NCBI GenBank assembly: GCA_000002435.2
Contig: CM018789.1
Origin: Giardia intestinalis
Taxonomy: Eukaryota
Reading direction: 5' to 3' (one strand)
Length of the DNA stretch: 64,000 bases
This document shows positions 19,046-34,002 of this stretch, piece by piece. The notes beneath the pieces are model-generated. The model had not been told where the DNA came from. It searched no databases and saw only the letters and a list, made by a program, of their open reading frames with translations. Position 1 is the stretch's first letter. Each line of letters starts with the position of its first letter. The translations under genes and the position numbers were made by a program.

Positions 19046-20290
19046 TTATGCCCCTGGCGGTAGCAGCTCATCACTGGACTCTGTCAGCAGACAGTTCTCC
19101 TCTGCTGCTACTCCCTCACCACTAAGGCCACAAAGACGCTGAGCTTCTGCCTCACACAGGCCTCGGTAGCGCAAGGCCTTCTGGCCAAGGCTGGAGGAGC
19201 AGAGCTGCTCCAGGACCCTTTGTCCGTTCAAGCTCTCTGTTTTATAGCTACTGTACAAGGCAATCCACGGGGCATTCTGCAATATGCTTTGCACAGTCTC
19301 GCCCAATTGAGGGACAGGGATGTCCATTCCAGAAAGTGAGGCATGATGTACGAGCTGGCGCTGCTTAAGGCTATTGTCAGTAATCCCCGGGTTCTTAATG
19401 ATCTCTAGAATGATACGCATGGCTAGTACACGGCCCAGCAGAGAGGGTCCGCCGATGCGGATGTGCGGGATATCGTCGTCCCCTAAGCTCACCCCACCGT
19501 CGGCTCTCTTTGTAATGACAACAGTACCCTTACGTCCGAGTAAAGCCCCGCCACCACGCAGCTGCAGTTCTGTTCCTGTCAGTGTCTGAAGTTCTCTCTG
19601 GGTGCTAGCCTGCGGTCCAAGTAAAAGCCCACTGTAGTTAACTGTATTTGTCCCCCCTACAGATTGCGGAAAATAGATGCAGATGGGCGGCAACTGGGTA
19701 GACCTTAAGTTTAATGATGGAATGAAGAATGGGTTTCCACGTTGAAAAGAGCTCTCTGTAGCGACATACTGTTGCAAAGATAGGTAGTGTAAAGATAAAA
19801 GACGGAGGCGATCCGGGGAGAGAGCGGTTGAAGAAGACAAGTATCCGGAAAGGCCGTCGACTGAAGAGGTAAGAATTGAAGTAAAGCCAGCTGCTATGTT
19901 AGGGTGTGCCGGATTAGCTAGGAATGCTCCATAAGGGGCATCTTCCTGCAAAATTGCTCTGTGTCTCATTCGTAAAAAAGCCTCAGTAATACGTAGATGG
20001 CTTTGAACAGCAGTAAGCTGAGCCTCCGTAAGGTAGTTTGGAATTCCCTGTGGCATGTGCTCAGAATAGACTGACTTGTTATTTGCGGGGGCAATGACCG
20101 GCGTTGGCTGTCCGAACGGACGCTTTGGACAAGAAACATACTTTTTGTAACTGAAGCGAGCTGCTGAGGGCTTGTGTGAAGAGGCTGCGAACTCTTTGGG
20201 TTTGGCTACCACTAGATGAGCAGATAAGTTGTAAGAGTCCATTACTAATCCTAAATCAGTTTTTTGATGACATACATGTTGTCTCAACAT
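19046..20290 (-). CDS. Hypothetical protein (414 aa; alternative start at the ATG at 20242)
   Basis: Long ORF with coding codon bias. The second in-frame ATG (MDSYNL, 20242) is preceded by the A/T-rich tcatcaaaaaactgatttagg. Confidence 0.5.
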   Translation of the reverse strand: MLRQHVCHQKTDLGLVMDSYNLSAHLVVAKPKEFAASSHKPSAARFSYKKYVSCPKRPFGQPTPVIAPANNKSVYSEHMPQGIPNYLTEAQLTAVQSHLRITEAFLRMRHRAILQEDAPYGAFLANPAHPNIAAGFTSILTSSVDGLSGYLSSSTALSPDRLRLLSLHYLSLQQYVATESSFQRGNPFFIPSLNLRSTQLPPICIYFPQSVGGTNTVNYSGLLLGPQASTQRELQTLTGTELQLRGGGALLGRKGTVVITKRADGGVSLGDDDIPHIRIGGPSLLGRVLAMRIILEIIKNPGITDNSLKQRQLVHHASLSGMDIPVPQLGETVQSILQNAPWIALYSSYKTESLNGQRVLEQLCSSSLGQKALRYRGLCEAEAQRLCGLSGEGVAAEENCLLTESSDELLPPGA

Positions 20291-20621
20291 AGTGGTGACG
20301 CGCGCAGTAGACCTTAGTGGTTACATGACTCAGCAGTCTTCTGTGAACAAGAGCTTAGCACTGCTGGGTTCACTTTATCTTGGCAGACGGCTTCATGACG
20401 AGCCGCAGCATCGACTCCATGGCTTGTTGCAAGAACACCGCTGGCCAAGAGCACTGTACAAGAGAATTGGCACCACGAGCACATTAATATAGAAGTGGCT
20501 GATGGACAAGACTAGGGAGACTCTCTGGCCACTGACACTGTTCGTTGTTATTGCAATCCACATTACAATATTATTAAACCCCTGTTCGTGTTGAGTACGC
20601 TCGCGGCGAACCGCCAGCTAG

Positions 20622-21230
20622 ATCGATAAGTGCGAAATAGTCGGTGACGCAGAGATCTGCACCCAGTGCAACGGAGATGGGTCTCAATCTGCCCCGACGG
20701 ACGGAGTGTGCTCAGCAGACAATAACGAGTGTACCCGGAAGCAAGATGGGAAGTGCACACAGTGCGCTAATAGGTCCTTCATGTACAAGGGCGGATGCTA
20801 CAAGGATAGCCAGGCACCTGGCAACACGATGTGTGAAGCAGCAAATGCTGGAGTATGCACACAGGCTAAGGAAGGGTACTTCCTGCTACCAGACGCAGAC
20901 GACTCTCACCAGTCGGTCATACCGTGCGGAGATGACACAGTAGTAACAGTTAGCGGCGATAAGAAGTACAAGGGCGTGCTGCACTGTACTTAGTGTAATA
21001 CACCTGACGCAGCACAGGATACTACTACTCCCAAGGCTGCCACTTGCACGACCTGTGAGGATGGTTTCTTTGTAGATAGTAGTAATAGATGCACTGCTTG
21101 TCCGGAGAACTGCCTGACCTGCACTGGTAAAATAGTCAAGGAAGAAGCCGACGGGGCAACTGCTTACATTGCTACTAATGACTGTATTCAACTTTCTAGT
21201 GAAGGCCCAATCTTTTTAATCCCCGTCTCT
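20622..21230 (+). pseudogene. VSP (variant-specific surface protein) pseudogene fragment: 5'-truncated, one in-frame TAG, 3'-truncated
   Basis: The reading frame from 20622 gives ...CTQCANRSFMYKGGCYKDSQAPGNTMCEAANAGVCTQAKEGYFLLPDADDSHQSVIPCGDDTVVTVSGDKKYKGVLHCT*CNTPDAAQDTTTPKAATCTTCEDGFFVDSSNRCTACPENCLTCTG. This is collinear with the N-terminal third of the intact VSP at 31678-33528 (CGSCKDGYFMYKSGCYNSGGSPGNEMCTSAPEGKCSTPAAGYFIIPTTDADASHQSVVSCSD...KIYKGVEGCAECT). There is no ATG or signal peptide, no TM helix and no CRGKA tail. The frame is broken by a TAG at 20991. Confidence 0.7.
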
Positions 21231-21914
21231 GAGGGGTTTGTCGTCTCCTGTTTCTATCTGCAGCCGCGCCGGGGACAGAGCGGCTCTCGCGGGGCCAGGC
21301 ACCTGGTGTCCTGGGCGGCGCCGGGTCTGAGTGGGTATGCGCCTTCAGCACTGTGGGCGTCCCCCGTCCCTCTCCTGTACAAGGGATCGGTGATGCGTAC
21401 CCCCTCGGTCTGCGTGCGGTTGTCAGTGCCCGTGCCTCGTGGTACCCCGGCTCTTTCAGCCCCAGCTGTCGTGGCGCCCTGCTCCGGCCATATCCCCACG
21501 AGGCCGCGTATTCTTCCATGGGACGGTCCTGGTTCCGTAGAGGCACGCCTGGGCCCACGATTCTCCCTGCGGAGGCCCCGTTGTCTGTGCTACTGGGGTC
21601 TGGGCCATCCGTCTGTACCGCTGCTTCAGGAGTCACATGAGTAAACTGCCTTTCACGTGGCTTTTTATAGAAGTAGACACTGATTGTAATCAACAGGGTC
21701 TAAAGATCTCTCGCCAATTGTACATGTCAGATCCTGTGGATTTTGGAATCCTTGGGTAGCATCCGTGCCCGGCTGATACGCGCGCCTCGGGCTCAGCAAG
21801 CCTGCCGCCCTCCTCCTCTTGCCCCCTGCGAGGACGCCGCCACTGGCTAGGCGCGTGCACAGCTTGTCCATCCGGCCCTTGAGAAGAGCCACATCACACG
21901 AGGAAGGGCGTCGT

Positions 21915-22721
21915 TTACTCGAGGAGAGAGGCGATTGCGTCGTGGCCATGCCTCCTTGCGATGTCGAGGGCGGTGGTGCCGGGCGGGAAGCCGAACCACT
22001 CACGGGTGGTCTGCATGCCCTTCTCCTTGTCCATCAGGAGCCTCGCACACTCCAGGCGGCCACTCTGCGCTGCATGCATGAGCGCTGTCCATCCATTGTT
22101 AGTCTTCATGCCGTCTTCTTTGTCTATTAGAAGCCTCACGCAGTCCGAGCAACCGTTGTCGGCTGCGTGCATGAGGGCAGTCCACCCACTGTTGGCCCTC
22201 ATTCCGCATTCCTTGTCCAGTAGAGCCTCCGCACACTCACAGCGCCCATACTGTGCTGCATACATTAGGGCGGTCTTCCCATCATCCGTTTTCATGCCAC
22301 CCTCCCTCTCCAGGAGGAGCTGCACGAACTCCAGTTTGCCGCGCTGTGCTGCGTACATAAGGGCAGTGGTGCCGTTGTTCCTCCTTTTGCTGCCTTCCCT
22401 CTCCAGCAGGAACTTCGCGCATTCCGGGTGGCCCCCGTACGCCGCCCGCATGAGCGCGGTCTCTCCAAGCTTATTCTGTGTGCTACCTTTCATCTTCAGC
22501 AGAACCTTCACGGCTCTCAGGTTTCCATACTCTGCTGCTGACATGATGTCGGTCTCGACGAAGCCGTATTTCAGCAACAAAAAAGACGAGAGACTCAGCC
22601 CGCTCCTCCCTTGTTGGTGGTAAAACTCTGCGGCTTCATCGATGCTCCTATCAGAAGCAGACCCCTCGGTGTCCTGAGAGCGACGACTCATTTCCGAAGC
22701 CCCAAGCACGTCGCTCGACAT
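21915..22721 (-). CDS. Ankyrin-repeat protein of the Protein 21.1 family (about 268 aa)
   Basis: About six repeats of 33 aa of the Giardia type (TALMxAAxxGxxExVxLLxxxEGG). The ORF track starts at a TTG (22871) inside GC-rich DNA. The first ATG (22721) is preceded by the initiator aagttaaaaATG. Confidence 0.8.
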   Translation of the reverse strand: MSSDVLGASEMSRRSQDTEGSASDRSIDEAAEFYHQQGRSGLSLSSFLLLKYGFVETDIMSAAEYGNLRAVKVLLKMKGSTQNKLGETALMRAAYGGHPECAKFLLEREGSKRRNNGTTALMYAAQRGKLEFVQLLLEREGGMKTDDGKTALMYAAQYGRCECAEALLDKECGMRANSGWTALMHAADNGCSDCVRLLIDKEDGMKTNNGWTALMHAAQSGRLECARLLMDKEKGMQTTREWFGFPPGTTALDIARRHGHDAIASLLE

Positions 22722-22879
22722 TTTTAACTTCGTCTGCTTGCAGGAAGACACTGCCACGGAAACACACACTTTGCTCTCTACTTCATTGAGAACGGTTTGC
22801 CAACTGCTGTCCGAGCATCTCCGTGGGAGCCGCCGCGCTGGGTGGGTCTCCGCTCGCCGTCCGGGGTCCAAATCCAGAG

Positions 22880-23940
22880 TCCGAGGTCGGATGCCCTCGA
22901 TCCCGGCGGAAGAAGAACTCCTATGTCTGCCTCCCCTGGAAGCTGCCGCTCCTCGCGGTGCCCCCTAGGACTTTCCTTCCTTTGGCTAGCTTGGGTCAGC
23001 TCCGTCTGATATCTAGTGAGCACCTGCTATCTCGGATCTTGCGTCAGTCGCGACGATCTGGCCTCCACAGAATCCAAGGCCCTGGTGCTCCATGACGAAG
23101 ATCCCACGCCACGACCCCGGGTGTCCACCCCGTTCCTCGGGGTGCCTCTTCGTCTCCTCGTGGAGGGCACCATCTGTTCCATTCTCAAGGGTGCGCTCCC
23201 CATGCGCCTCTATCTTGAGGTTGTGGTACGCGTTTGTGGATGCCGGCGGAGCACTCCCATGCGTTGTGTCGGGGGAGAGGCCCACCTCTCTGCTCATGGA
23301 TCGCAGAGGTGGTCTGTCACCCAGCACGAGATCATGTCGACGCCCACCCTGTGCAGTGCGTCTGGCTCGGCTGACAGTGTGAGCTGCGTCCATCTGACAG
23401 CACACTTGGAGATGATGCTTCGGTCTGTCGAGGCAGTCAGTCCAGGGCCACCCCTCTGAAGGGTGTCATATGAAGTATCAAGAGCGATCAGGACAGGTTC
23501 ACCGAAGTCGTCTCGCTTGGCGCTCATCTACTCGAGGGTGTCAGGCACTGCCAGCTGCTGCGGCAGACCCTAGGTAGGTGACCCAGACCACCACTCTCGG
23601 TGCGGGCAGGATCAGTCCGCCTCTGCCAGCCAAGCACCCCAACTCCCATCTCTTGTCGAGGGATTCACATGGGTCACGTGTGGATCCATCTCGACCAGCG
23701 TGACAAGTGATTAGTGCCATCACTGGCTTCAGGCTCTCCGTTGCCTTGGGCGTTCCTTGAGACCAGCCAGGAAGGAGGCCTCCTGCTTCTCAGTGTTCCT
23801 ATACTTGTCAGTGTTGACCGTCGAGCCATGTCGCTTCATCAGGCCTGCCGCCTCTGTGGCTACCCCCGTTGCGTCACTGTCGTCACTGTAAAAGATGAGT
23901 GTGTCGTCAGTGTAGGCAATGAGCTTGAAGCGGCTCACTA
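22880..23940 (-). mobile_element. Possible degenerate, 5'-truncated non-LTR retroelement remnant containing a reverse-transcriptase motif-C fragment
   Basis: The short minus-strand ORF at 23729-23938 encodes LIAYTDDTLIFYSDDSD, a tandem Y-x-D-D pattern that matches the RT active-site motif followed by hydrophobic residues. The surrounding 1 kb is GC-rich (unlike nearby genes) and lacks any long ORF, consistent with frameshifted decay. The extent is uncertain. Confidence 0.3.
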
Positions 23941-24207
23941 GACAGCGGCTGATTCAGAGAAGATTAAATAAAGAGAAGGTAAGATTCTTGGAAAGTTAAG
24001 ACGAGAAGTAAGATATTGGCTCTCAGCGTATAGAAACACAAAGTTCCTTCTTTCTTGCCGGAGCTGGATCGCATCCAAATGCTAAATCCTGAATTCCAAA
24101 TTCTGGACTTTTAAACAAACGAAGATGCTATCTGGAATGACAATTCAACTGGGCAGCAACTGGAAAGCCCGTCATAATGAAGCAGAGTAATTCAGTAGTG
24201 CAATTTA

Positions 24208-25716
24208 TTAAGCAAAATACCGATTCTTCTCGATGTCAGCAACAAAGAGCACTCTGTCCTCGCTGCACAGATAAACAGTGTCGATGGTAGGGTAGTCGAT
24301 GAAGTTCCCGTTCATGAGGGCCACCCCTGTCTCGGCCAGAATCGGGTTAACAAGGGGGAGGTACTTATCTAGAAGAAGACGCTTCAGTAGGGGAACAGGG
24401 TCGTCCATCCCTTCGCTGTGCTTCTTGGTGGCGATATCGTACACATCAAGGAACTCTACATATGCACGAACTTGGTCATTGGCAAACCCGTAGGTAAACT
24501 TCTTAAGCTTGACCGCAGAAGAGAAGAGCACGTCGCCCTCAAGGTTGGCCAGAGTTACAGAAGTTTGGTCTGAACTCTTGCTGGCTGTCACAGAGAGGGC
24601 CCCCGTGAGGTTGACCGGTAGTGTAGCCGCCCCGATCCACGGTATGTGGGGTGCGGCATCCTTGGAGGGACTGATCGATAGAGTCAAGGTGACCCCGAGT
24701 CCAAGGTCGCTAACACTGCTTAGTAGTCCGGCCTTCACAAGGGCCTCTGCAAGACCGGGTATGTTCTGCCCCCTGATGGTGCTGTACGGGACAGTGAGAC
24801 TATCTGCCTTGAACTTGTCATACGCCACATGCCAGGCATACAGGTAGGAGTTAACTGATTCCCTGTCTACATAGAACTCATAGTCTCGGTCGGTGTAGAC
24901 CGTCTTCGGAGGGGGAGAGGTGATCTTGTTTGGATAGAGAGCTCTAACCGACCAATCTGGGACAGTGATGATCATTGAAAAGCCACCCTGGTCTGCCACT
25001 ATCTTGTTATCGACGACATTGATGCCGTTGATGTAGCGCTGGTCAGTCAGATAGTCGTCGATCTGGACAACTAAGGGCAGGTTGAGCATTGACTGCTTTA
25101 TTGAATTGAAGATTGTGTTAAAGAGGAGCTGCAGCACAGTGTCCTTTATTAGGGTCTCCAACGTGGGGGCCATGCCTTGGATGGCAGTTGCAAGGACAGA
25201 GCCCCCTGTGTCGAGTCCGATGGCATCGATGTCAAGCCCAGACGAGTACACGACGTTCGATATCTCGGAGAGCCCGAAGTGGTACGGGCAGGTGGGGTCG
25301 TCTCCGAGCCTCAGAGAGATGTCTGCCCCGAAGTCCTTGAGGGTGAATATGCAGTCGACGGTCCCGGTGATCCCGGTGATGACTGCCTTGAGTCGCATCG
25401 AGATCTGCATGAGTCCGTCCCGGGCCTCCATCTTGACAAAGTTGTTATCTTGCAAATAAACCTTCATGGTTGAAACACGCACTGCACGGGGTCTGATATT
25501 GGAGAGAGTAATCTGCAAAGTCCCGACAGTTATGGGTATCTCTGGAAACGCTGGAAGACCAGAAATAATGTCAGGAATGATAGAGTAGCCCTTCTGGCAG
25601 AACTTCTCCAGCCCACGTCTGGTGAAGCGCATTCCCATTCCATGTTCAGGTTCGTTAGTAAAAGGTGTACCCAGGGCACATCCCAAAGTAATAGAAAATA
25701 GTAGTAGTATTAGCAT
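24208..25716 (-). CDS. Secreted protein with N-terminal signal peptide, tentatively BPI/LBP/CETP-like lipid-binding (502 aa)
   Basis: N-terminus MLILLLFSITLGCALG looks like a signal peptide. The region after it (RRGLEKFCQKGYSIIPDIISG...VKMEARDGLMQISMRLKAVITGITG...LRLGDDPTCPY) resembles the start of the BPI N-terminal barrel in spacing and in its single Cys pair. The call is tentative. Confidence 0.6.
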   Translation of the reverse strand: MLILLLFSITLGCALGTPFTNEPEHGMGMRFTRRGLEKFCQKGYSIIPDIISGLPAFPEIPITVGTLQITLSNIRPRAVRVSTMKVYLQDNNFVKMEARDGLMQISMRLKAVITGITGTVDCIFTLKDFGADISLRLGDDPTCPYHFGLSEISNVVYSSGLDIDAIGLDTGGSVLATAIQGMAPTLETLIKDTVLQLLFNTIFNSIKQSMLNLPLVVQIDDYLTDQRYINGINVVDNKIVADQGGFSMIITVPDWSVRALYPNKITSPPPKTVYTDRDYEFYVDRESVNSYLYAWHVAYDKFKADSLTVPYSTIRGQNIPGLAEALVKAGLLSSVSDLGLGVTLTLSISPSKDAAPHIPWIGAATLPVNLTGALSVTASKSSDQTSVTLANLEGDVLFSSAVKLKKFTYGFANDQVRAYVEFLDVYDIATKKHSEGMDDPVPLLKRLLLDKYLPLVNPILAETGVALMNGNFIDYPTIDTVYLCSEDRVLFVADIEKNRYFA

Positions 25717-26543
25717 ATCGATGTGTCAGTGGAGTTATCTAGCAAACTTAATTTTTAATAAATTTAACTATGCAGCACAGAATGCACTGGTTCGCATACC
25801 TCTTACGCTCATTCTGTTTTTAGGAAACATCATGGTCACTTTCAGGAAGACAAAGTAATTGTCTGCATGCTACGGGTTGAACACTAAGCATTCTTATGTT
25901 CGACATACAAAAGATTAGTATCAATAGTATGATCATTATTCACCACACGCATGGCTACTTACCCTAAGACCTTATCAGCTTGGATTGTGCTTTTCTGGTA
26001 ATTACTTAGCGCCATCGAGTGCACCTATTTACGAAGGCAGACTAAATCGTACAAGGCATTAGCTTTGAGCTTATAAGCGCTATAACTTCTGATGGATGAT
26101 TTCATACAGTATGCCCTGTTGTTCTGATGGAGCACTCAATATACCAGACAGATGATTTAGCATGGTATCTCTGCAAACCATATTTACTATTATACTTACG
26201 CACGCGCCCATGCATAAGATAGTATCGTGCTGCGTAGTACAATAAAAGCAGACATATCTTACTTATTCCTGTATTGCAGGAACGTATCACCTGACAATCA
26301 ATGTCACTGGACAAAGAGTTTGTGTGAAGGTATATGTACTTGTATATGAACCTATTAGAAGCAAACACTCGTGGCTCGTAGAGATATTTACAAATAAATT
26401 AGCTTAATGATTCATTATATTATTAAATTCTTGTTAGTAGGCTGTCTAGTGGGAGTGTAGTCGAGTTCACCAACTGCTGGATTGTTCTCACTTGAAAGAC
26501 ACGCCAGGGAGTCCTGCAATGTGTGGTTGGAGTCACTATGTGC

Positions 26544-28601
26544 TTATTTTGAGGACTGCTTAGAAAGAATAGAAAGTACTTCTCTATAGCCTTTCCTCCT
26601 GGCTATGTCTGAGGCTGTTGATTCAGATGGATAGGCCTGATCGTCATCTTCCCAATAGACATTATGAGTAGTTTTTATGTCCCCTTCTTTGCTTGCAAGA
26701 AGTCTCACGCATTCTAGATTGTTATTGCACGTTGCTCTCATAAGAGCGGTTATGCCATTCTTATCTTTCATACAGGCCTCCTTTTTCAGTAAGAGTTTAA
26801 CTGAATTCTGGTTGTTAGATTGAGCTGCATACATGAGGGCAGTACGATCCTCGCTGTTTTGTGCCCCTTCTTCCACGTTCATTAAAAGCCCTACAAGCTC
26901 AGTGTGGTTAGTGAGTGCAGCGTACATAAGAGCAGTCCAACCAGTGTTGTCTTTCATGCCTCCCTCATGCTCCATGAGTAGCTTTACAGCATCGGTATGT
27001 CCATATATTGTTGCGCCCATAAGCGCTGTTCGATTGCATAATGTATACCCATTGATATAGGCTTTCCCTGGAGCCTGACATCTTTTCTGAAGAGGAATCA
27101 AGAGCTTTACGACCTCCACATCCCCTCTATCTGCGGCCCGCATGAGTGCCGTGACTCCATCCTTGTCAGTTGGATCTATGAGCTCCACAATATCCTTATG
27201 TCCCATTCTCGCTGCAAGTGTCAACGCTGTATCTCCGTCTTTATTCATCTTATTTCTGTTATTGTCGATATACTTCTTAGCCGCTCTCGCATCTCCGACA
27301 ACCACAGCATGCATAAGCGGGGTCCAAGAGGAATCACACATGGGAATGAGGTTATTTAGCCTAAAACCCCGAGAAACCTGCATCCTGAGTTCTTCCGTGG
27401 CTTTAGAGAACTGTTGCTGTTGCTGCTGACTATTCTTTTGAAGTGCCTGCAGCTGGGAAATGCAACCCTTACACTGGGTTTCAAGGCCATCAATTCTGCT
27501 TGATCTGGCCCTAACCTCTTTTTGGAGGGAAATTATGTCAGCTGACTGCTTCTCGATAATGCTCTTTAGAGAGCTAATTTCAGTAGATTTGCTGTTGAGC
27601 TTCTCCTTGAGAGAAGTCAGCTCTGCTCTGTGGTTCTCGTTGGAACTATCAAGTGTCTGCTTGAGGATCTCACACTCACGCTGAAGAGATACCACCTGTG
27701 TCCTGAGCTCTTTACTGATCAGTAGTTCTATTAGCGTTTGATCTCTCGCCAGACTAACGAGCTCCTTGGCAGACAGACGGGCCTCGGGATCTAGAACAAG
27801 GATATATCTGAGGAGTTCCCTAAGGAGAGGACTCTGGACAGAGGTTAGATTCGGCTTCCAGTCATTTGTGAATGCTGATTGTGAATCGTCACTATTTGCA
27901 AAGCTTGGTCTGCTCAATGTGGCAAGCTCATAGATGATGCAGCCAAGAGCCCAAACGTCTGACGCAGGACTGTGTTTGCTATAAATAACTTCTTCTGGAG
28001 CAGAATAGGAAAAGATACTTGCACTGACCCCATTTTGTAAGAGCTCTCTGGGAAGCCCGTAGTCTGTGAGGACAAAGTGCTTGCCATTATCACTAGCAAG
28101 GATACTGGTAGGTGTGAGACCTCCGTGGATGATGACTGGGAGGGGCTTTCCGTTGGCAGCTATCTTCCCCGAGTCGTAGAGGTATGCAAGACCAGAGGCT
28201 ACTTGCTCAAGTATGAGAAAAATGTCTTGTTCGGAGACAGGCTGCCTCGCTCTTTTATGCCTATTGATCATGCTCTCAATGGTTTCCCTGTAGCAATCTA
28301 CAACAACGTAGATGAACTCTCCATCGCAGAGTACCTGGTAACACCTGAGGACATGTGGGTGGGAAAGCCTGGTATGAACAAGCAGGTTGCATTGTATATC
28401 CTTTATAATGTCCTCTGTGAAACTATCAAGTTGAATCTCTCTGACAGCTAAGGCTGGGTATCCCTCAAGAGCATAAAGGATTCCGGATGCCCCCCTTCCA
28501 AGTATTTCGCTTAGACAATGCAGAAGGCTTTCAAGCGTAAACTTAGGAATCGAACAGGTATCTTTGGCAGTGGATAGCATGCAGCTGGATGCAGAGGCCA
28601 T
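26544..28601 (-). CDS. NEK-family protein kinase-like protein with coiled-coil region and C-terminal ankyrin repeats. Predicted pseudokinase
   Basis: The ORF track starts at a TTG (28643). The first ATG is at 28601 (MASASSC...). Kinase-fold motifs are present but degenerate: G-loop GRGASG, beta-3 AVREI (Lys replaced by Arg), catalytic loop IIHGGLTPTS in place of HRDLKPEN, DYG in place of DFG, APE retained. The C-terminus has at least 6 Giardia-type ankyrin repeats. Confidence 0.85.
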   Translation of the reverse strand: MASASSCMLSTAKDTCSIPKFTLESLLHCLSEILGRGASGILYALEGYPALAVREIQLDSFTEDIIKDIQCNLLVHTRLSHPHVLRCYQVLCDGEFIYVVVDCYRETIESMINRHKRARQPVSEQDIFLILEQVASGLAYLYDSGKIAANGKPLPVIIHGGLTPTSILASDNGKHFVLTDYGLPRELLQNGVSASIFSYSAPEEVIYSKHSPASDVWALGCIIYELATLSRPSFANSDDSQSAFTNDWKPNLTSVQSPLLRELLRYILVLDPEARLSAKELVSLARDQTLIELLISKELRTQVVSLQRECEILKQTLDSSNENHRAELTSLKEKLNSKSTEISSLKSIIEKQSADIISLQKEVRARSSRIDGLETQCKGCISQLQALQKNSQQQQQQFSKATEELRMQVSRGFRLNNLIPMCDSSWTPLMHAVVVGDARAAKKYIDNNRNKMNKDGDTALTLAARMGHKDIVELIDPTDKDGVTALMRAADRGDVEVVKLLIPLQKRCQAPGKAYINGYTLCNRTALMGATIYGHTDAVKLLMEHEGGMKDNTGWTALMYAALTNHTELVGLLMNVEEGAQNSEDRTALMYAAQSNNQNSVKLLLKKEACMKDKNGITALMRATCNNNLECVRLLASKEGDIKTTHNVYWEDDDQAYPSESTASDIARRKGYREVLSILSKQSSK

Positions 28602-29029
28602 GTGGGTTTTTATTGACTGTGAATTATAGATCCGATTGGGCAATCAATTGAGTTCACCATAGAATTTCAAAGGAATGATGTGTAGTAATGTAAGTCTCAG
28701 TCCATCTAACTAGGAGATATTCCGTATCTGACGATAGAGGGATCTGTTGCAATTGGCGCAACTGATGCCAATCAGCCCTCTCACACGGATCGGATATGTT
28801 TTATCATACTGTAAATCTGACTATATGTCCACTTAGAATCCATATTAATACTCCTAGGCTCGTCATTGTTCAAGAATAAATATGACACTGTAATAGACAG
28901 TTGCACTCAGAATAATCTTCTTGCAGACTGGGACACAGATCAGTTGTTCTCTTCAAGGCTATATTGAACCAAAACCATCTATAGGCTTTATATGCTGATG
29001 ATTCACTCCACTCACTGGTTGTTTCCGGT

Positions 29030-29650
29030 GCTTTGCTGATGGGACCCTCGTCTGGGTGTGGTCCAGAGGTCTCACGAGTGACCCTCGCTCAATTCCTGGC
29101 CAGTCCGGAGACAAAGGTCGACTTTGGATAATATAACGAGAGAGTCCTCTCCAATGATATGTCCAGAGCCTGGTGCGCTCCTCGGTCGTTCCACAAGCGT
29201 GTGCTCAGACCGAATGCGTACATCGGTCCTTTAGGGGTTCAGCTTACTTACCCATCTGCGTCGTCCACCAGTGGCGCCTCTCCTTGGTCTTCCTTCACGG
29301 TGGGTGAAGCTCTGGTCGCCGTCTTTTTTAGATGCTCCCGTCTGACTCGGTGATTGCTGTCGGGGCTCTCCACTGGCCGCCCCTCGGTGTCCATCCGGCT
29401 GTGGTTCTGGGCAGTGGTCCCACAGTCGCGGTTACCTGGGTCCCAGTGGGCCAGCTGGTGGGGAGGCTGGGGTTGCTGGGGCGGTGAGGCCGGAGGGGAC
29501 TGGTGGGACCGGGGGCGGTGTTCATATGTGCCCCTGGGTCTGGTGGGCCATTGGGGTGGTGGGGTGATCGCAGCTGTGGTGACTGGGGGCTGTCCATCTG
29601 TGACTCACCCCTCTGTGTGCTCGTGGTCTGTGAGTGCCTCCACCCAGACA
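29030..29650. repeat. Left arm of a large inverted repeat. Core 29163-29404 is 100% identical to the reverse complement of 31272-31513
   Basis: Compared directly base by base. The outer and inner flanks are alignable but diverged, with indels. Confidence 0.85.
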
Positions 29651-31009
29651 ACACTCAGGAGCCGTGCACACCGGGACAGAGAGGGTGACCAAGGGGAGTC
29701 AAGCAGCCCTGCCATGAGAGTGCACAGCAACCAGCCTGAGCTGTAGAGTCTGCTCGAGCGATGGTAGTGGCAGACGACTCCCTCTGACAGCAACCCTGGT
29801 GACTGCACTGGTCTGCTCTCGAGGCTGAGTGACAGTGTGCACAGATGGACATGAGTGCAGGAGGACCATCCACACACGAACAGACTGTGTGGACCCAGAG
29901 AGGACTGGAGTCTGCTCGGGACACGCTGACTGTGCCCCGTACGAGAGTGTCAGGCAACCACCCGAGCACCCGAGAGGCAGCAACAGACACGGGCACTAGA
30001 GATCCCCAGCCAGACACATTGCTATGCCCATCCACAGGGGCATCAGAAGGCCAGGTGGGGTCACCCTCACAACCAGGACCTGATAGGAAGCCAGAGGACT
30101 CAAACACTACAGCAGAGCAGGCCCAAGGGAGGCACACTCCAGGCAGGCGAGCAGTGGCAGAGCCTTGATAGCTGCCATCCACCCCCATGACACCTATAGC
30201 AGGCACCAGACTCACCGAAGGCTCCGCTGGCCTCCACCGATGACCCGAGGGGACAGCGACCAGAGGAGTGAGGAGACCTTCGGATGACACAAGAGGCCGG
30301 CTGTCCAGCAAGCGATGGAACACAGGTGACCTCTGAGCACCATAAGGCACAGAGCCAACCATCAGAGTGATGCCCGATCACAGAGACGACCACGAGCACC
30401 CTCCACCGCACTCTGAGGGGCTGTCAATCATCCCACTGCCTCTCATAGCAGACCTCCTTAAGGGCAGTGCAGTGGGGCCCAGCTCATGCAGGGAGGTGCA
30501 CACCCCTCAGTATAGGACACCCCGGCTCTCCCCGAGGGGTCATCAGAGCCACGAGGAGGTGTCAAGGTCCTGGTAGACCACACCGAGAACTCCCGAACAG
30601 GCACAGCAGGTGATGTTGGGTGATCCTCAGCGTGCTCCTCTCTGATGGTAGAGCATCCTGAGACCAAGGGGGCTCACCTCTGCCTATGAACAACACACAG
30701 CACTCCACAACGAGGATCCACCAGGAGCAGCACAGCTGACCACGGGGACAGTGCAGCCACCCGGTACCCCACCGTGCCAGTCTTCTGGGCCATCACACTA
30801 GAGGCCTGAGAGAACCCCATCCCATCCACAGGGTCATCCATGCCCCTGCTAGCCCGAGGTGAACTACCCCCGTCGAGGCACTGGACAGGGCATGCCAGGG
30901 GCCCAGCAGACCCGCACAGAGCAACAGGAGAGGCTACGATAGCCTGCCTCACCCTTCACGTACTAGTCAAACAGAGAGGTAGTACTGCCTGAGGCATGCA
31001 GAGGCCAAG

Positions 31010-31650
31010 GGAGGCGCTCAGTCAGGGGGACACGACACGATCGTCGGTGTCTGTGTCTCGGGAGTGCAACGAAGGCTGGGGATCAGACACAACCACCTTG
31101 GCAAACAGAGCGGGGATCACCCACCACCCCAATGGCCCATCAGACCCAGGGGCACATACAGACATCACTCCCAGTCCCCTCCAGCCCTCACCGCCCCATA
31201 CCCCGCCTCACCCATCATCCGAACCCGCTGGGACCCAAGCGACCGCGACTGTAGAGCACTGACTCGAGCCACAGCCGGATGGACACCGAGGGGCGGCCAG
31301 TGGAGAGCCCCGACAGCAATCACCGAGTCAGACGGGAGCATCTAAAAAAGACGGCGACCAGAGCTTCACCCACCGTGAAGGAAGACCAAGGAGAGGCGCC
31401 ACTGGTGGACGACGCAGATGGGTAAGTAAGCTGAACCCCTAAAGGACCGATGTACGCATTCGGTCTGAGCACACGCTTGTGGAACGACCGAGGAGCGCAC
31501 CAGGCTCTGGATGTATCACTGGAGAGGATTCTCTCGTTATATTATTCACAACCAGCCATCGTCTCTGGACTGGTCAGGAAGGAGCGATGATTACCCACAC
31601 GATCTCTGGACCGCGCTCAGATAGCCCCAGCAGCACATCTACATAGGCTA
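31010..31650. repeat. Right arm of the inverted repeat. Ends about 15 nt from the VSP polyA signal
   Basis: Reverse complement of the left arm. The short ORFs 29328-29654 (-) and 31064-31345 (+) end with the identical peptide ...GGQWRAPTAITESDGSI, which confirms the mirror symmetry. Confidence 0.85.
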
Positions 31651-33528: not shown

Positions 33529-34002
33529 TAGCTAATAGCAGTAAGGAGTGTCCGAAAGATAGTCTCATCCTGCGCTTGCTCCTCTGCTCAGGCCCACGGT
33601 CTCCTGTCTCTGGCACTGAACCCTGAACTATGTGCTGGGCGGGCTTCAGAAGCGAAGAGCGGCGCACACTGTGAACGAAGAAAAACTGCAAGGTGAGACC
33701 ACAATTCTGCCATACAAGATCCCCTATAGCCACACGCTCATCATCAAAGTTCGATTTATTCCATCTAGATGAGCAAATGATACTTCGTACCTGTATCGAA
33801 TCTTAAACGTCTCGCCCACGCATTACTTACGTCGCTAAACCACCGTTCTGAGGGCGAGATATCTTTCAGCATTTATAACCAAAAAATTAAGCTCACCCAA
33901 AGTCAACGGAGCGCCAGCTACGTGTTATGGGCAGCGAAAGTACCAGAGCCAAAGAGTTCCTCTGATCGCCTGGCCGGAGCACATTTGTGATCTCCTATAC
34001 CT

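Follow-up and report, generated by a model that had tools for sequence, protein, structure and literature searches.

GL50803_17510 of Giardia intestinalis, a catalogued dead Nek with a predicted pseudokinase domain and TALM-ankyrin repeats that probably has a non-catalytic role

The window analyzed here, a 64,000-nucleotide stretch of contig CM018789.1 of Giardia intestinalis (assembly GCA_000002435.2), contains the gene GL50803_17510, whose product combines an N-terminal protein-kinase-like domain with a long helix and an array of ankyrin repeats. We consider it very likely that GL50803_17510 is a catalytically dead kinase-fold protein that has been kept for a non-catalytic job. Because the kinase fold is confidently predicted, the gene is under purifying selection and the loss of the catalytic Asp166 (numbering of the kinase PKA, used here for canonical positions) is common to its orthologues, a non-catalytic role is probably maintained, as a scaffold. 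The pseudokinase status is correct but was already published, in the same form, in 2011 by Manning et al. (PMC3218828); the finding is therefore already known, and the results on selection, structure and orthologues that we add are confirmatory and unsurprising.

An initial annotation of the window had described the kinase fold as recognizable, and this was borne out. The Pfam Pkinase profile (PF00069) matched with E=3e-29 and a score of 102.6 bits (cut-off, 31.7), over positions 5-258 of its 263, and an AlphaFold2 (AF2) model of the kinase domain has a predicted local distance difference test score (pLDDT) of 87.6 and a predicted template modeling score (pTM) of 0.87. By both the Pfam gathering score and the bilobal fold, the domain belongs to the eukaryotic protein kinase (ePK) superfamily. 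Foldseek searches with the domain returned NEK7, NEK2, CDK2 and PTK6 at E∼1e-14 with template modeling (TM) scores of 0.65-0.69, and at least 1999 PDB kinase chains were matched at E≤0.001. In the AF2 model of the full-length protein (pLDDT 82.7), the kinase domain occupies residues 23-286.

Catalytic positions were read two ways, from a phmmer alignment of residues 1-300 to human PLK4 and from the columns of a 53-sequence Giardia family alignment (GL50803_17510 and 52 Giardia paralogues), and the two agree on every catalytic position (Table 1). The family consensus is that of a canonical active kinase (LAVKEI, VHRDLKPANIL, LADFGL, YMAPE), and the full K/D/D triad is kept in 28 of the 50 scorable paralogues, so the alignment separates live from dead members. 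As read from these alignments, four phosphotransfer residues are gone from GL50803_17510, namely K72, E91, D166 and N171. The β3 Lys is replaced by Arg54 in AVREI, as the initial annotation had proposed; Lys-to-Arg at this position is the standard kinase-dead mutation. The annotated change of HRD-x-K to HGG-x-T is sound for the Asp, the D166 position being Gly161 (family column D37/N7/G2), but its second half is not diagnostic, because active PLK4 also has Thr at the position of Thr163 (HRDLTLSN). Similarly, the change of DFG to DYG is real but is not a catalytic loss, because the metal-binding Asp180 stays. Two further replacements had been overlooked, those of the αC Glu by Asn72 and of the catalytic Asn by Ser166 (family column N46/S4). 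The Gly-rich loop and the APE motif are preserved, as had been noted, and APE, D215/W217/G220 and R275 are structural residues that are invariant or nearly so in the family. The residues retained for stability of the fold include DxWxxG and the Arg that pairs with the Glu of APE. A Lys or Asp that was present but offset would overturn this picture; none was found: the β1-β3 stretch EILGRGASGILYALEGYPALAVREIQLDSFT contains no Lys, so that β2 offers no WNK-like substitute, and the catalytic loop PLPVIIHGGLTPTSIL contains no Asp.

Relative to PLK4, the domain carries an insertion of ∼11 residues between αE and the catalytic loop (residues 145-158, DSGKIAANGKPLPV, positions 28128-28169), which aligns to a gap in the human protein. 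The insertion is also present in the Giardia family consensus, LHxxxxVxAxGxxxxGxVHRDL, and is therefore a lineage-specific structural feature.

The gene lies on the minus strand within an open reading frame (ORF) spanning 26544..28643, in which the first ATG, at 28601, gives a protein of 685 residues. This ATG was taken as the start because the A-rich AATAAAAACCCAC precedes it and because the orthologues also begin MAS.... The protein is identical (100%, full length) to "Kinase, NEK" of G. intestinalis ATCC 50803 (WB clone C6), in keeping with its initial description as a Giardia NEK protein; the identical records are XP_001709064.1, KAE8301850.1 and UniProt A8B6V4, and the exact sequence was found on 99 contigs. 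A near-match, AGTGAC, 6 nt past the TAA stop (26525-26543, minus strand), resembles AGTRAAY, which we take to be the Giardia polyadenylation signal. A scan for bacterial-type promoters and terminators around the gene gave counts at the level of shuffled sequence; such a scan is not relevant to a eukaryote.

A peptide-string search of the supplements of PMC3218828 located the exact sequence in Table S1 (Additional file 1), row G067, where GL50803_17510 is listed as GK107, classified Other/Nek/Nek-GL4, with the curated remark "Dead Nek - missing K72, D166", one coil, seven ankyrin repeats and WB:P15:GS orthology of 1:1:1. The comparison with a curated kinome that the initial annotation had called for thus returns the same verdict, and the exact sequence in that kinome, together with orthologues in conserved synteny, places the gene in Nek-GL4 as GK107. 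The corresponding rows of Alignment S1 in the same study read VIIHGGLTPTSILASDNGK (GK107_WB), TIIHGGLMPINILASDNDK (GK107_P15) and AVVHGALEPSSILVSDGV (GK107_GS). By the definition of Manning et al., a kinase is dead if at least one of K72, D166 and D184 is absent; GL50803_17510 qualifies twice, through K72 and D166, and retains D184 as Asp180 of DYG. Its setting is a kinome in which Neks make up 198 of 278 kinases and in which 71% (139/195) of WB Neks lack at least one of these three residues (PMC3218828), as expected from the initial remark on an expanded family with an inactive majority. An N-terminal kinase domain followed by TALM-ankyrin repeats is found in 133 of the 198 Neks (PMC3218828), and GL50803_17510 has this architecture. 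A re-annotation published in 2025 has renamed most such proteins "non-core protein kinases", holding their Nek membership to be doubtful, and has defined an "Int-ncPsK" class of 79 members, regarded as interaction-domain pseudokinases, in which the KDD triad is absent and interaction domains are present (PMC12538575). GL50803_17510 would appear to fit this definition, an assignment that follows from the criteria of PMC12538575; neither GL50803_17510 nor A8B6V4 is named in the main text of that paper.

The name Nek itself deserves some caution. Searches of PDB sequences scored PLK4 (62 bits) and PLK1 (55.6 bits) above NEK2 (53 bits) and NEK7 (52 bits), and in the Foldseek search NEK7 and NEK2 held ranks 2-6 in a tie with PTK6 and CDK2. 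A specifically NEK-like kinase domain was therefore rejected as a reading of the PDB matches, PLK4 and PLK1 being higher by sequence and CDK2 and PTK6 tying by fold. The Nek label of GL50803_17510 rests on curated transitive homology via its Giardia paralogues (PMC3218828), and the rankings by sequence and by fold are consistent with the reluctance of PMC12538575 to use the name.

We compared the catalytic motifs among orthologues from WB, P15 (GLP15_229; L001:6001-8151), a 96%-identical lineage (L003:533-2683) and an assemblage-B-like lineage; DH (P0112) was included for the integrity of the ORF and the repeat count. In place of HRD, the B-like orthologue has HGA and the other three have HGG; Asp166 is thus missing from all orthologues examined, and its loss is therefore old. 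The orthologues differ at the remaining catalytic positions: β3 carries Lys in the B-like orthologue and Arg in the others, Asn171 is present in P15 and replaced by Ser in the other three, and DYG is NYG in the B-like orthologue, where the Gly-rich loop has also become DQGAFG; WB, P15 and the 96%-identical lineage retain GRGASG and Asp180. The structural motifs APE, DxWxxG and DPxxR are invariant across the orthologues compared. This pattern, with the Asp gone everywhere, other catalytic sites varying and structural motifs fixed, suggests that the fold is kept for a non-catalytic purpose, and the varying catalytic positions argue against a conserved nucleotide-dependent function.

Selection was estimated as the ratio of nonsynonymous to synonymous substitution rates (dN/dS) from codon alignments with the P15 orthologue; values obtained with the assemblage-B-like orthologue were not relied on, dS being saturated at ∼1.9. 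Between WB and P15 the kinase domain has a dN/dS of 0.22 (dS 0.43, dN 0.095, bootstrap 95% interval 0.14-0.34), the coiled coil 0.20 and the ankyrin region 0.13, with 0.18 overall. The neighboring syntenic gene of 502 amino acids, taken as the local baseline, has a dN/dS of 0.20, and since the value for the kinase domain is close to it, the constraint on the domain is that of an ordinary gene. WB, DH, P15 and the 96%-identical lineage all have an intact ORF.

The WB allele has lost one ankyrin repeat relative to the orthologues compared. The 31 residues absent from WB, VAANCNNPECVILLLKKEACMKDNNGWTALM, are present in DH, P15 and the 96%-identical lineage, and the junction falls in GCTCTTATG (..TALM), a microhomology common to two adjoining repeats, for which reason the loss looks like unequal recombination or slippage. 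Collapse during assembly is not the explanation, since the 685-residue form is found in WB accessions of both 2007 and 2019 and on the 99 contigs. In the B-like orthologue (P0038, 51% identical), a 1-nt frameshift occurs at SSWTP|PLMCAAF, at the start of the ankyrin region (L005:∼1776-1830, L006), after which the ankyrin repeats run on in another frame to the end of the contig (Logan contigs, at least 11 samples). This frameshift may be real, the gene being split or a pseudogene in the B-like lineage, or may come from an assembly error that recurs at a C-run.

Beyond the kinase domain, the AF2 model has a single continuous helix, a low-confidence linker (pLDDT <50 over residues 395-422) and eight helix-turn-helix pairs (Table 1), consistent with the coiled coil and the six or more ankyrin repeats of the initial annotation. 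The helix is a predicted coiled coil with a Gln run at its end, as also reflected in the single coil of the Manning table. Its heptad periodicity is modest to weak, 17 of the 32 a/d positions in the best register being hydrophobic, compared with an overall hydrophobic content of 30%, and the region between the kinase and ankyrin parts gave marginal matches to Pfam coiled-coil-type families only. Pfam ankyrin families match at approximately residues 420-645 (Ank_2, E=2.4e-48), and the exact TALM motif occurs in five of the eight repeats, at residues 484, 525, 556, 587 and 618. The eighth repeat is a degenerate C-terminal cap; the Manning table counts seven.

Table 1. Positions in the window of GL50803_17510, its domains and motifs, and neighboring features (residue numbers refer to the 685-residue protein)
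Feature	Position	Strand	Details and evidence
Complete coding sequence, GL50803_17510	26544..28601	-	685 amino acids; TAA stop at 26544-26546; exact match to XP_001709064.1 / A8B6V4
Protein-kinase-like (predicted pseudokinase) domain, residues 32-282	27756..28508	-	Pfam PF00069, AF2, Foldseek, dN/dS
Gly-rich loop GRGASG (G35-G40), intact GxGxxG	28482..28499	-	PLK4 and family alignments
Arg54 at β3 Lys (VAIK, PKA K72), in AVREI	28440..28442	-	Family column K41/R5/M3/Q1; Manning "missing K72"
Asn72 at αC Glu (PKA E91)	28386..28388	-	Family column E38/K5/N2
Degenerate catalytic loop HGGLTPTS (H159-S166)	28104..28127	-	Alignments and Manning Alignment S1, row GK107_WB
DYG (D180-G182) for DFG; Asp180 (PKA D184) present	28056..28064	-	Family column D39
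APE (A201-E203), kept	27993..28001	-	Invariant in family
Continuous 110-residue α-helix, residues 289-398	27408..27737	-	DSSP on AF2 full-length model
Low-confidence linker, residues 399-427, probably disordered	27321..27407	-	pLDDT of AF2 full-length model
Eight TALM-type ankyrin repeats, residues 428-684	26550..27320	-	Eight helix-turn-helix pairs (AF2 model)
Deletion junction in WB, codon of Met621	26739..26741	-	93 bp, one repeat, in frame relative to orthologues compared
Inverted repeat arms	∼29093-29569 and 31106-31580		∼480 bp each, 88-89% identical, ∼1.5 kb between
VSP gene, 616 amino acids	31678-33528	-	Upstream of GL50803_17510; Pfam VSP E=9.7e-90
502-amino-acid gene, no Pfam match	24208-25716	-	Downstream; hydrophobic N-terminus MLILLLFSITLGCALG...

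Judging from its domain types and from other Giardia Neks, we propose that the protein would act as a scaffold or adaptor. It may dimerize through coiled-coil formation by the long helix, the eight TALM-ankyrin repeats may bind partners or target the protein within the cell, and the pseudokinase domain could be a module for protein interaction, possibly also for nucleotide binding. Among other Giardia Neks, the inactive Orf_15409 was re-localized on deletion of one ankyrin repeat (PMC3218828), and 9 of 13 ventral-disc-associated NEKs are without catalytic residues (bioRxiv 10.1101/361105). For GL50803_17510 itself we found no localization, partner or activity assay in the literature, only a one-peptide match (MASCOT 25) in a mitosome-enriched fraction; the SAGE (serial gene-expression analysis) tags given for GK107 in the Manning table have R 2.52 and a maximum of 5.4.

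Several points weigh against a dead domain retained in a scaffold. The inactivity of GL50803_17510 is predicted from sequence, and some proteins once termed pseudokinases turned out to be active. In WB and P15 both the Gly-rich loop and the Asp of DYG remain intact, which is compatible with nucleotide or metal binding. The scaffold, dimer and targeting steps proposed above are drawn from domain types and from other Giardia Neks, the evidence at the protein level is one low-scoring peptide, and the full architecture may be dispensable in the B-like lineage, given the frameshift before its ankyrin region.

The alternative that survives best, which we nevertheless regard as very unlikely, is that the domain works as a nucleotide-dependent switch or as an active, if atypical, enzyme: Arg54 would take the place of the Lys, the GxGxxG loop and the Asp of DYG would hold ATP, and the ATP would serve non-canonical phosphotransfer or the control of conformation. 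The joint loss of K72, E91, D166 and N171 speaks against it, as do the missing WNK-like Lys in β2, the missing Asp in the catalytic loop and a β3 exchange that is established as kinase-dead, even though WB, P15 and the 96%-identical lineage all retain GRGASG and Asp180 and the domain is under purifying selection. Moreover, a function in ATP binding should conserve the residues of the nucleotide site, yet these vary (DQGAFG and NYG in the B-like orthologue, Asn171 in P15 only). We likewise see little chance that the dead domain is an ATP-dependent conformational switch or non-canonical catalyst controlling what the ankyrin array binds; if that were true across many Giardia proteins of the class, regulation by ligands would extend to much of the "dead" kinome.

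Least probable is that the gene, as a relic of the fast-turnover Nek-GL4 expansion, has no function and is decaying, with an ORF that would still be open only because its death is recent. One ankyrin repeat is indeed lost in WB, the B-like orthologue is frameshifted and the evidence for expression is weak. Against this reading, the HGG/HGA loss predates the split of the compared lineages, yet WB, DH, P15 and the 96%-identical lineage all retain an intact ORF; the dN/dS values for the whole gene and the kinase domain, including the upper bound for the latter, are far below 1 and equal to that of the neighboring gene; orthology is 1:1:1 and not strain-specific; and the WB deletion has exactly the size of a repeat and keeps the frame.

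As one of ∼139 similar Giardia proteins catalogued in 2011, a single gene adds little. The general question for parasitologists is why Giardia retains more than 100 pseudokinase-ankyrin proteins, ∼3.7% of its proteome, and to this the locus contributes one small, clean data point of ancient Asp loss, ordinary purifying selection and drifting catalytic positions. Ancient loss of the Asp, neighbor-like selection and drift are the signature expected of a maintained non-catalytic fold.

Compared with known systems, GL50803_17510 has the bilobal ePK fold in common with human NEK2, NEK7 and PLK4, which are active, with K, E, D, N and D all present, and have no ankyrin repeats, in both respects unlike GL50803_17510; NEK2 also has a C-terminal coiled coil. 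The Giardia Protein 21.1 family has the same type of TALM-ankyrin repeat, and coiled coils in some members, but no recognizable kinase domain, whereas that of GL50803_17510 is matched by Pfam as described above. Members of this family appear among the homologues of GL50803_17510 via the ankyrin region, and Neks and 21.1 proteins have been suggested to form one family (PMC3218828). The closest counterparts are the Nek-GL4 TALM-ankyrin pseudokinases (PMC3218828), of which GL50803_17510 is a listed member and with which it agrees in the loss of K72 and D166, the coiled coil and the TALM repeats; from the orthologues of GK107 in DH, P15 and the 96%-identical lineage, the WB allele differs by its one fewer repeat and otherwise in nothing of substance. 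Orf_15409, the only inactive Giardia Nek with published localization data, likewise has a dead kinase domain and ankyrin repeats (four), but belongs to a different subfamily (Nek-Unclassified) and has no reported coiled coil, unlike GL50803_17510 (PMC3218828).

The order of genes at the P15 locus is that of the window, with VSP, NEK and a 503-amino-acid gene that is syntenic with, and 78.5% identical to, the downstream 502-amino-acid gene (Table 1). The upstream VSP gene is only 38% identical to the P15 VSP gene at the same position (771 amino acids) and is therefore a positional, not a sequence, orthologue. Between the VSP gene and GL50803_17510 lies an inverted-repeat element (29093-31580, 2.5 kb) with 60% G+C, against 42% in the 490 bp adjoining the NEK gene. 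The initial annotation was right about the presence of this repeat and put it about 440 bp away; it begins 449 bp from the upper bound of the ORF and 491 bp upstream of the ATG. At the P15 locus nothing corresponds to the element, the spacer between VSP and NEK there being only 1.1 kb, and similarity between WB and P15 in the spacer is limited to ∼400 bp adjoining the NEK start. The element is inserted between two genes as a feature of its own, and nothing links it to the pseudokinase; its proximity has no demonstrated bearing on the gene. An origin from VSP, NEK or ankyrin coding sequence, of which it would be a remnant, was considered and rejected, as tblastn returned no significant match. 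The element is without a long ORF, a 235-amino-acid ORF inside it corresponds to no recorded gene and has no Pfam match, and no tandem repeats were found between the NEK and VSP genes.

Elsewhere in the window, an ankyrin-only ORF of 318 amino acids (21915-22871, minus strand; Ank_2, E=1.5e-77) resembles Protein 21.1. It sits in a G+C-rich stretch (20000-24000, 54-58% G+C) that is otherwise without long ORFs, and, called from a TTG start, may be a piece of a gene that is longer or has been disrupted. The only Rfam match in the window is the H/ACA small nucleolar RNA GlsR27 at 33890-34002 on the plus strand, matched over its full length with 143 bits and E=3.8e-30.

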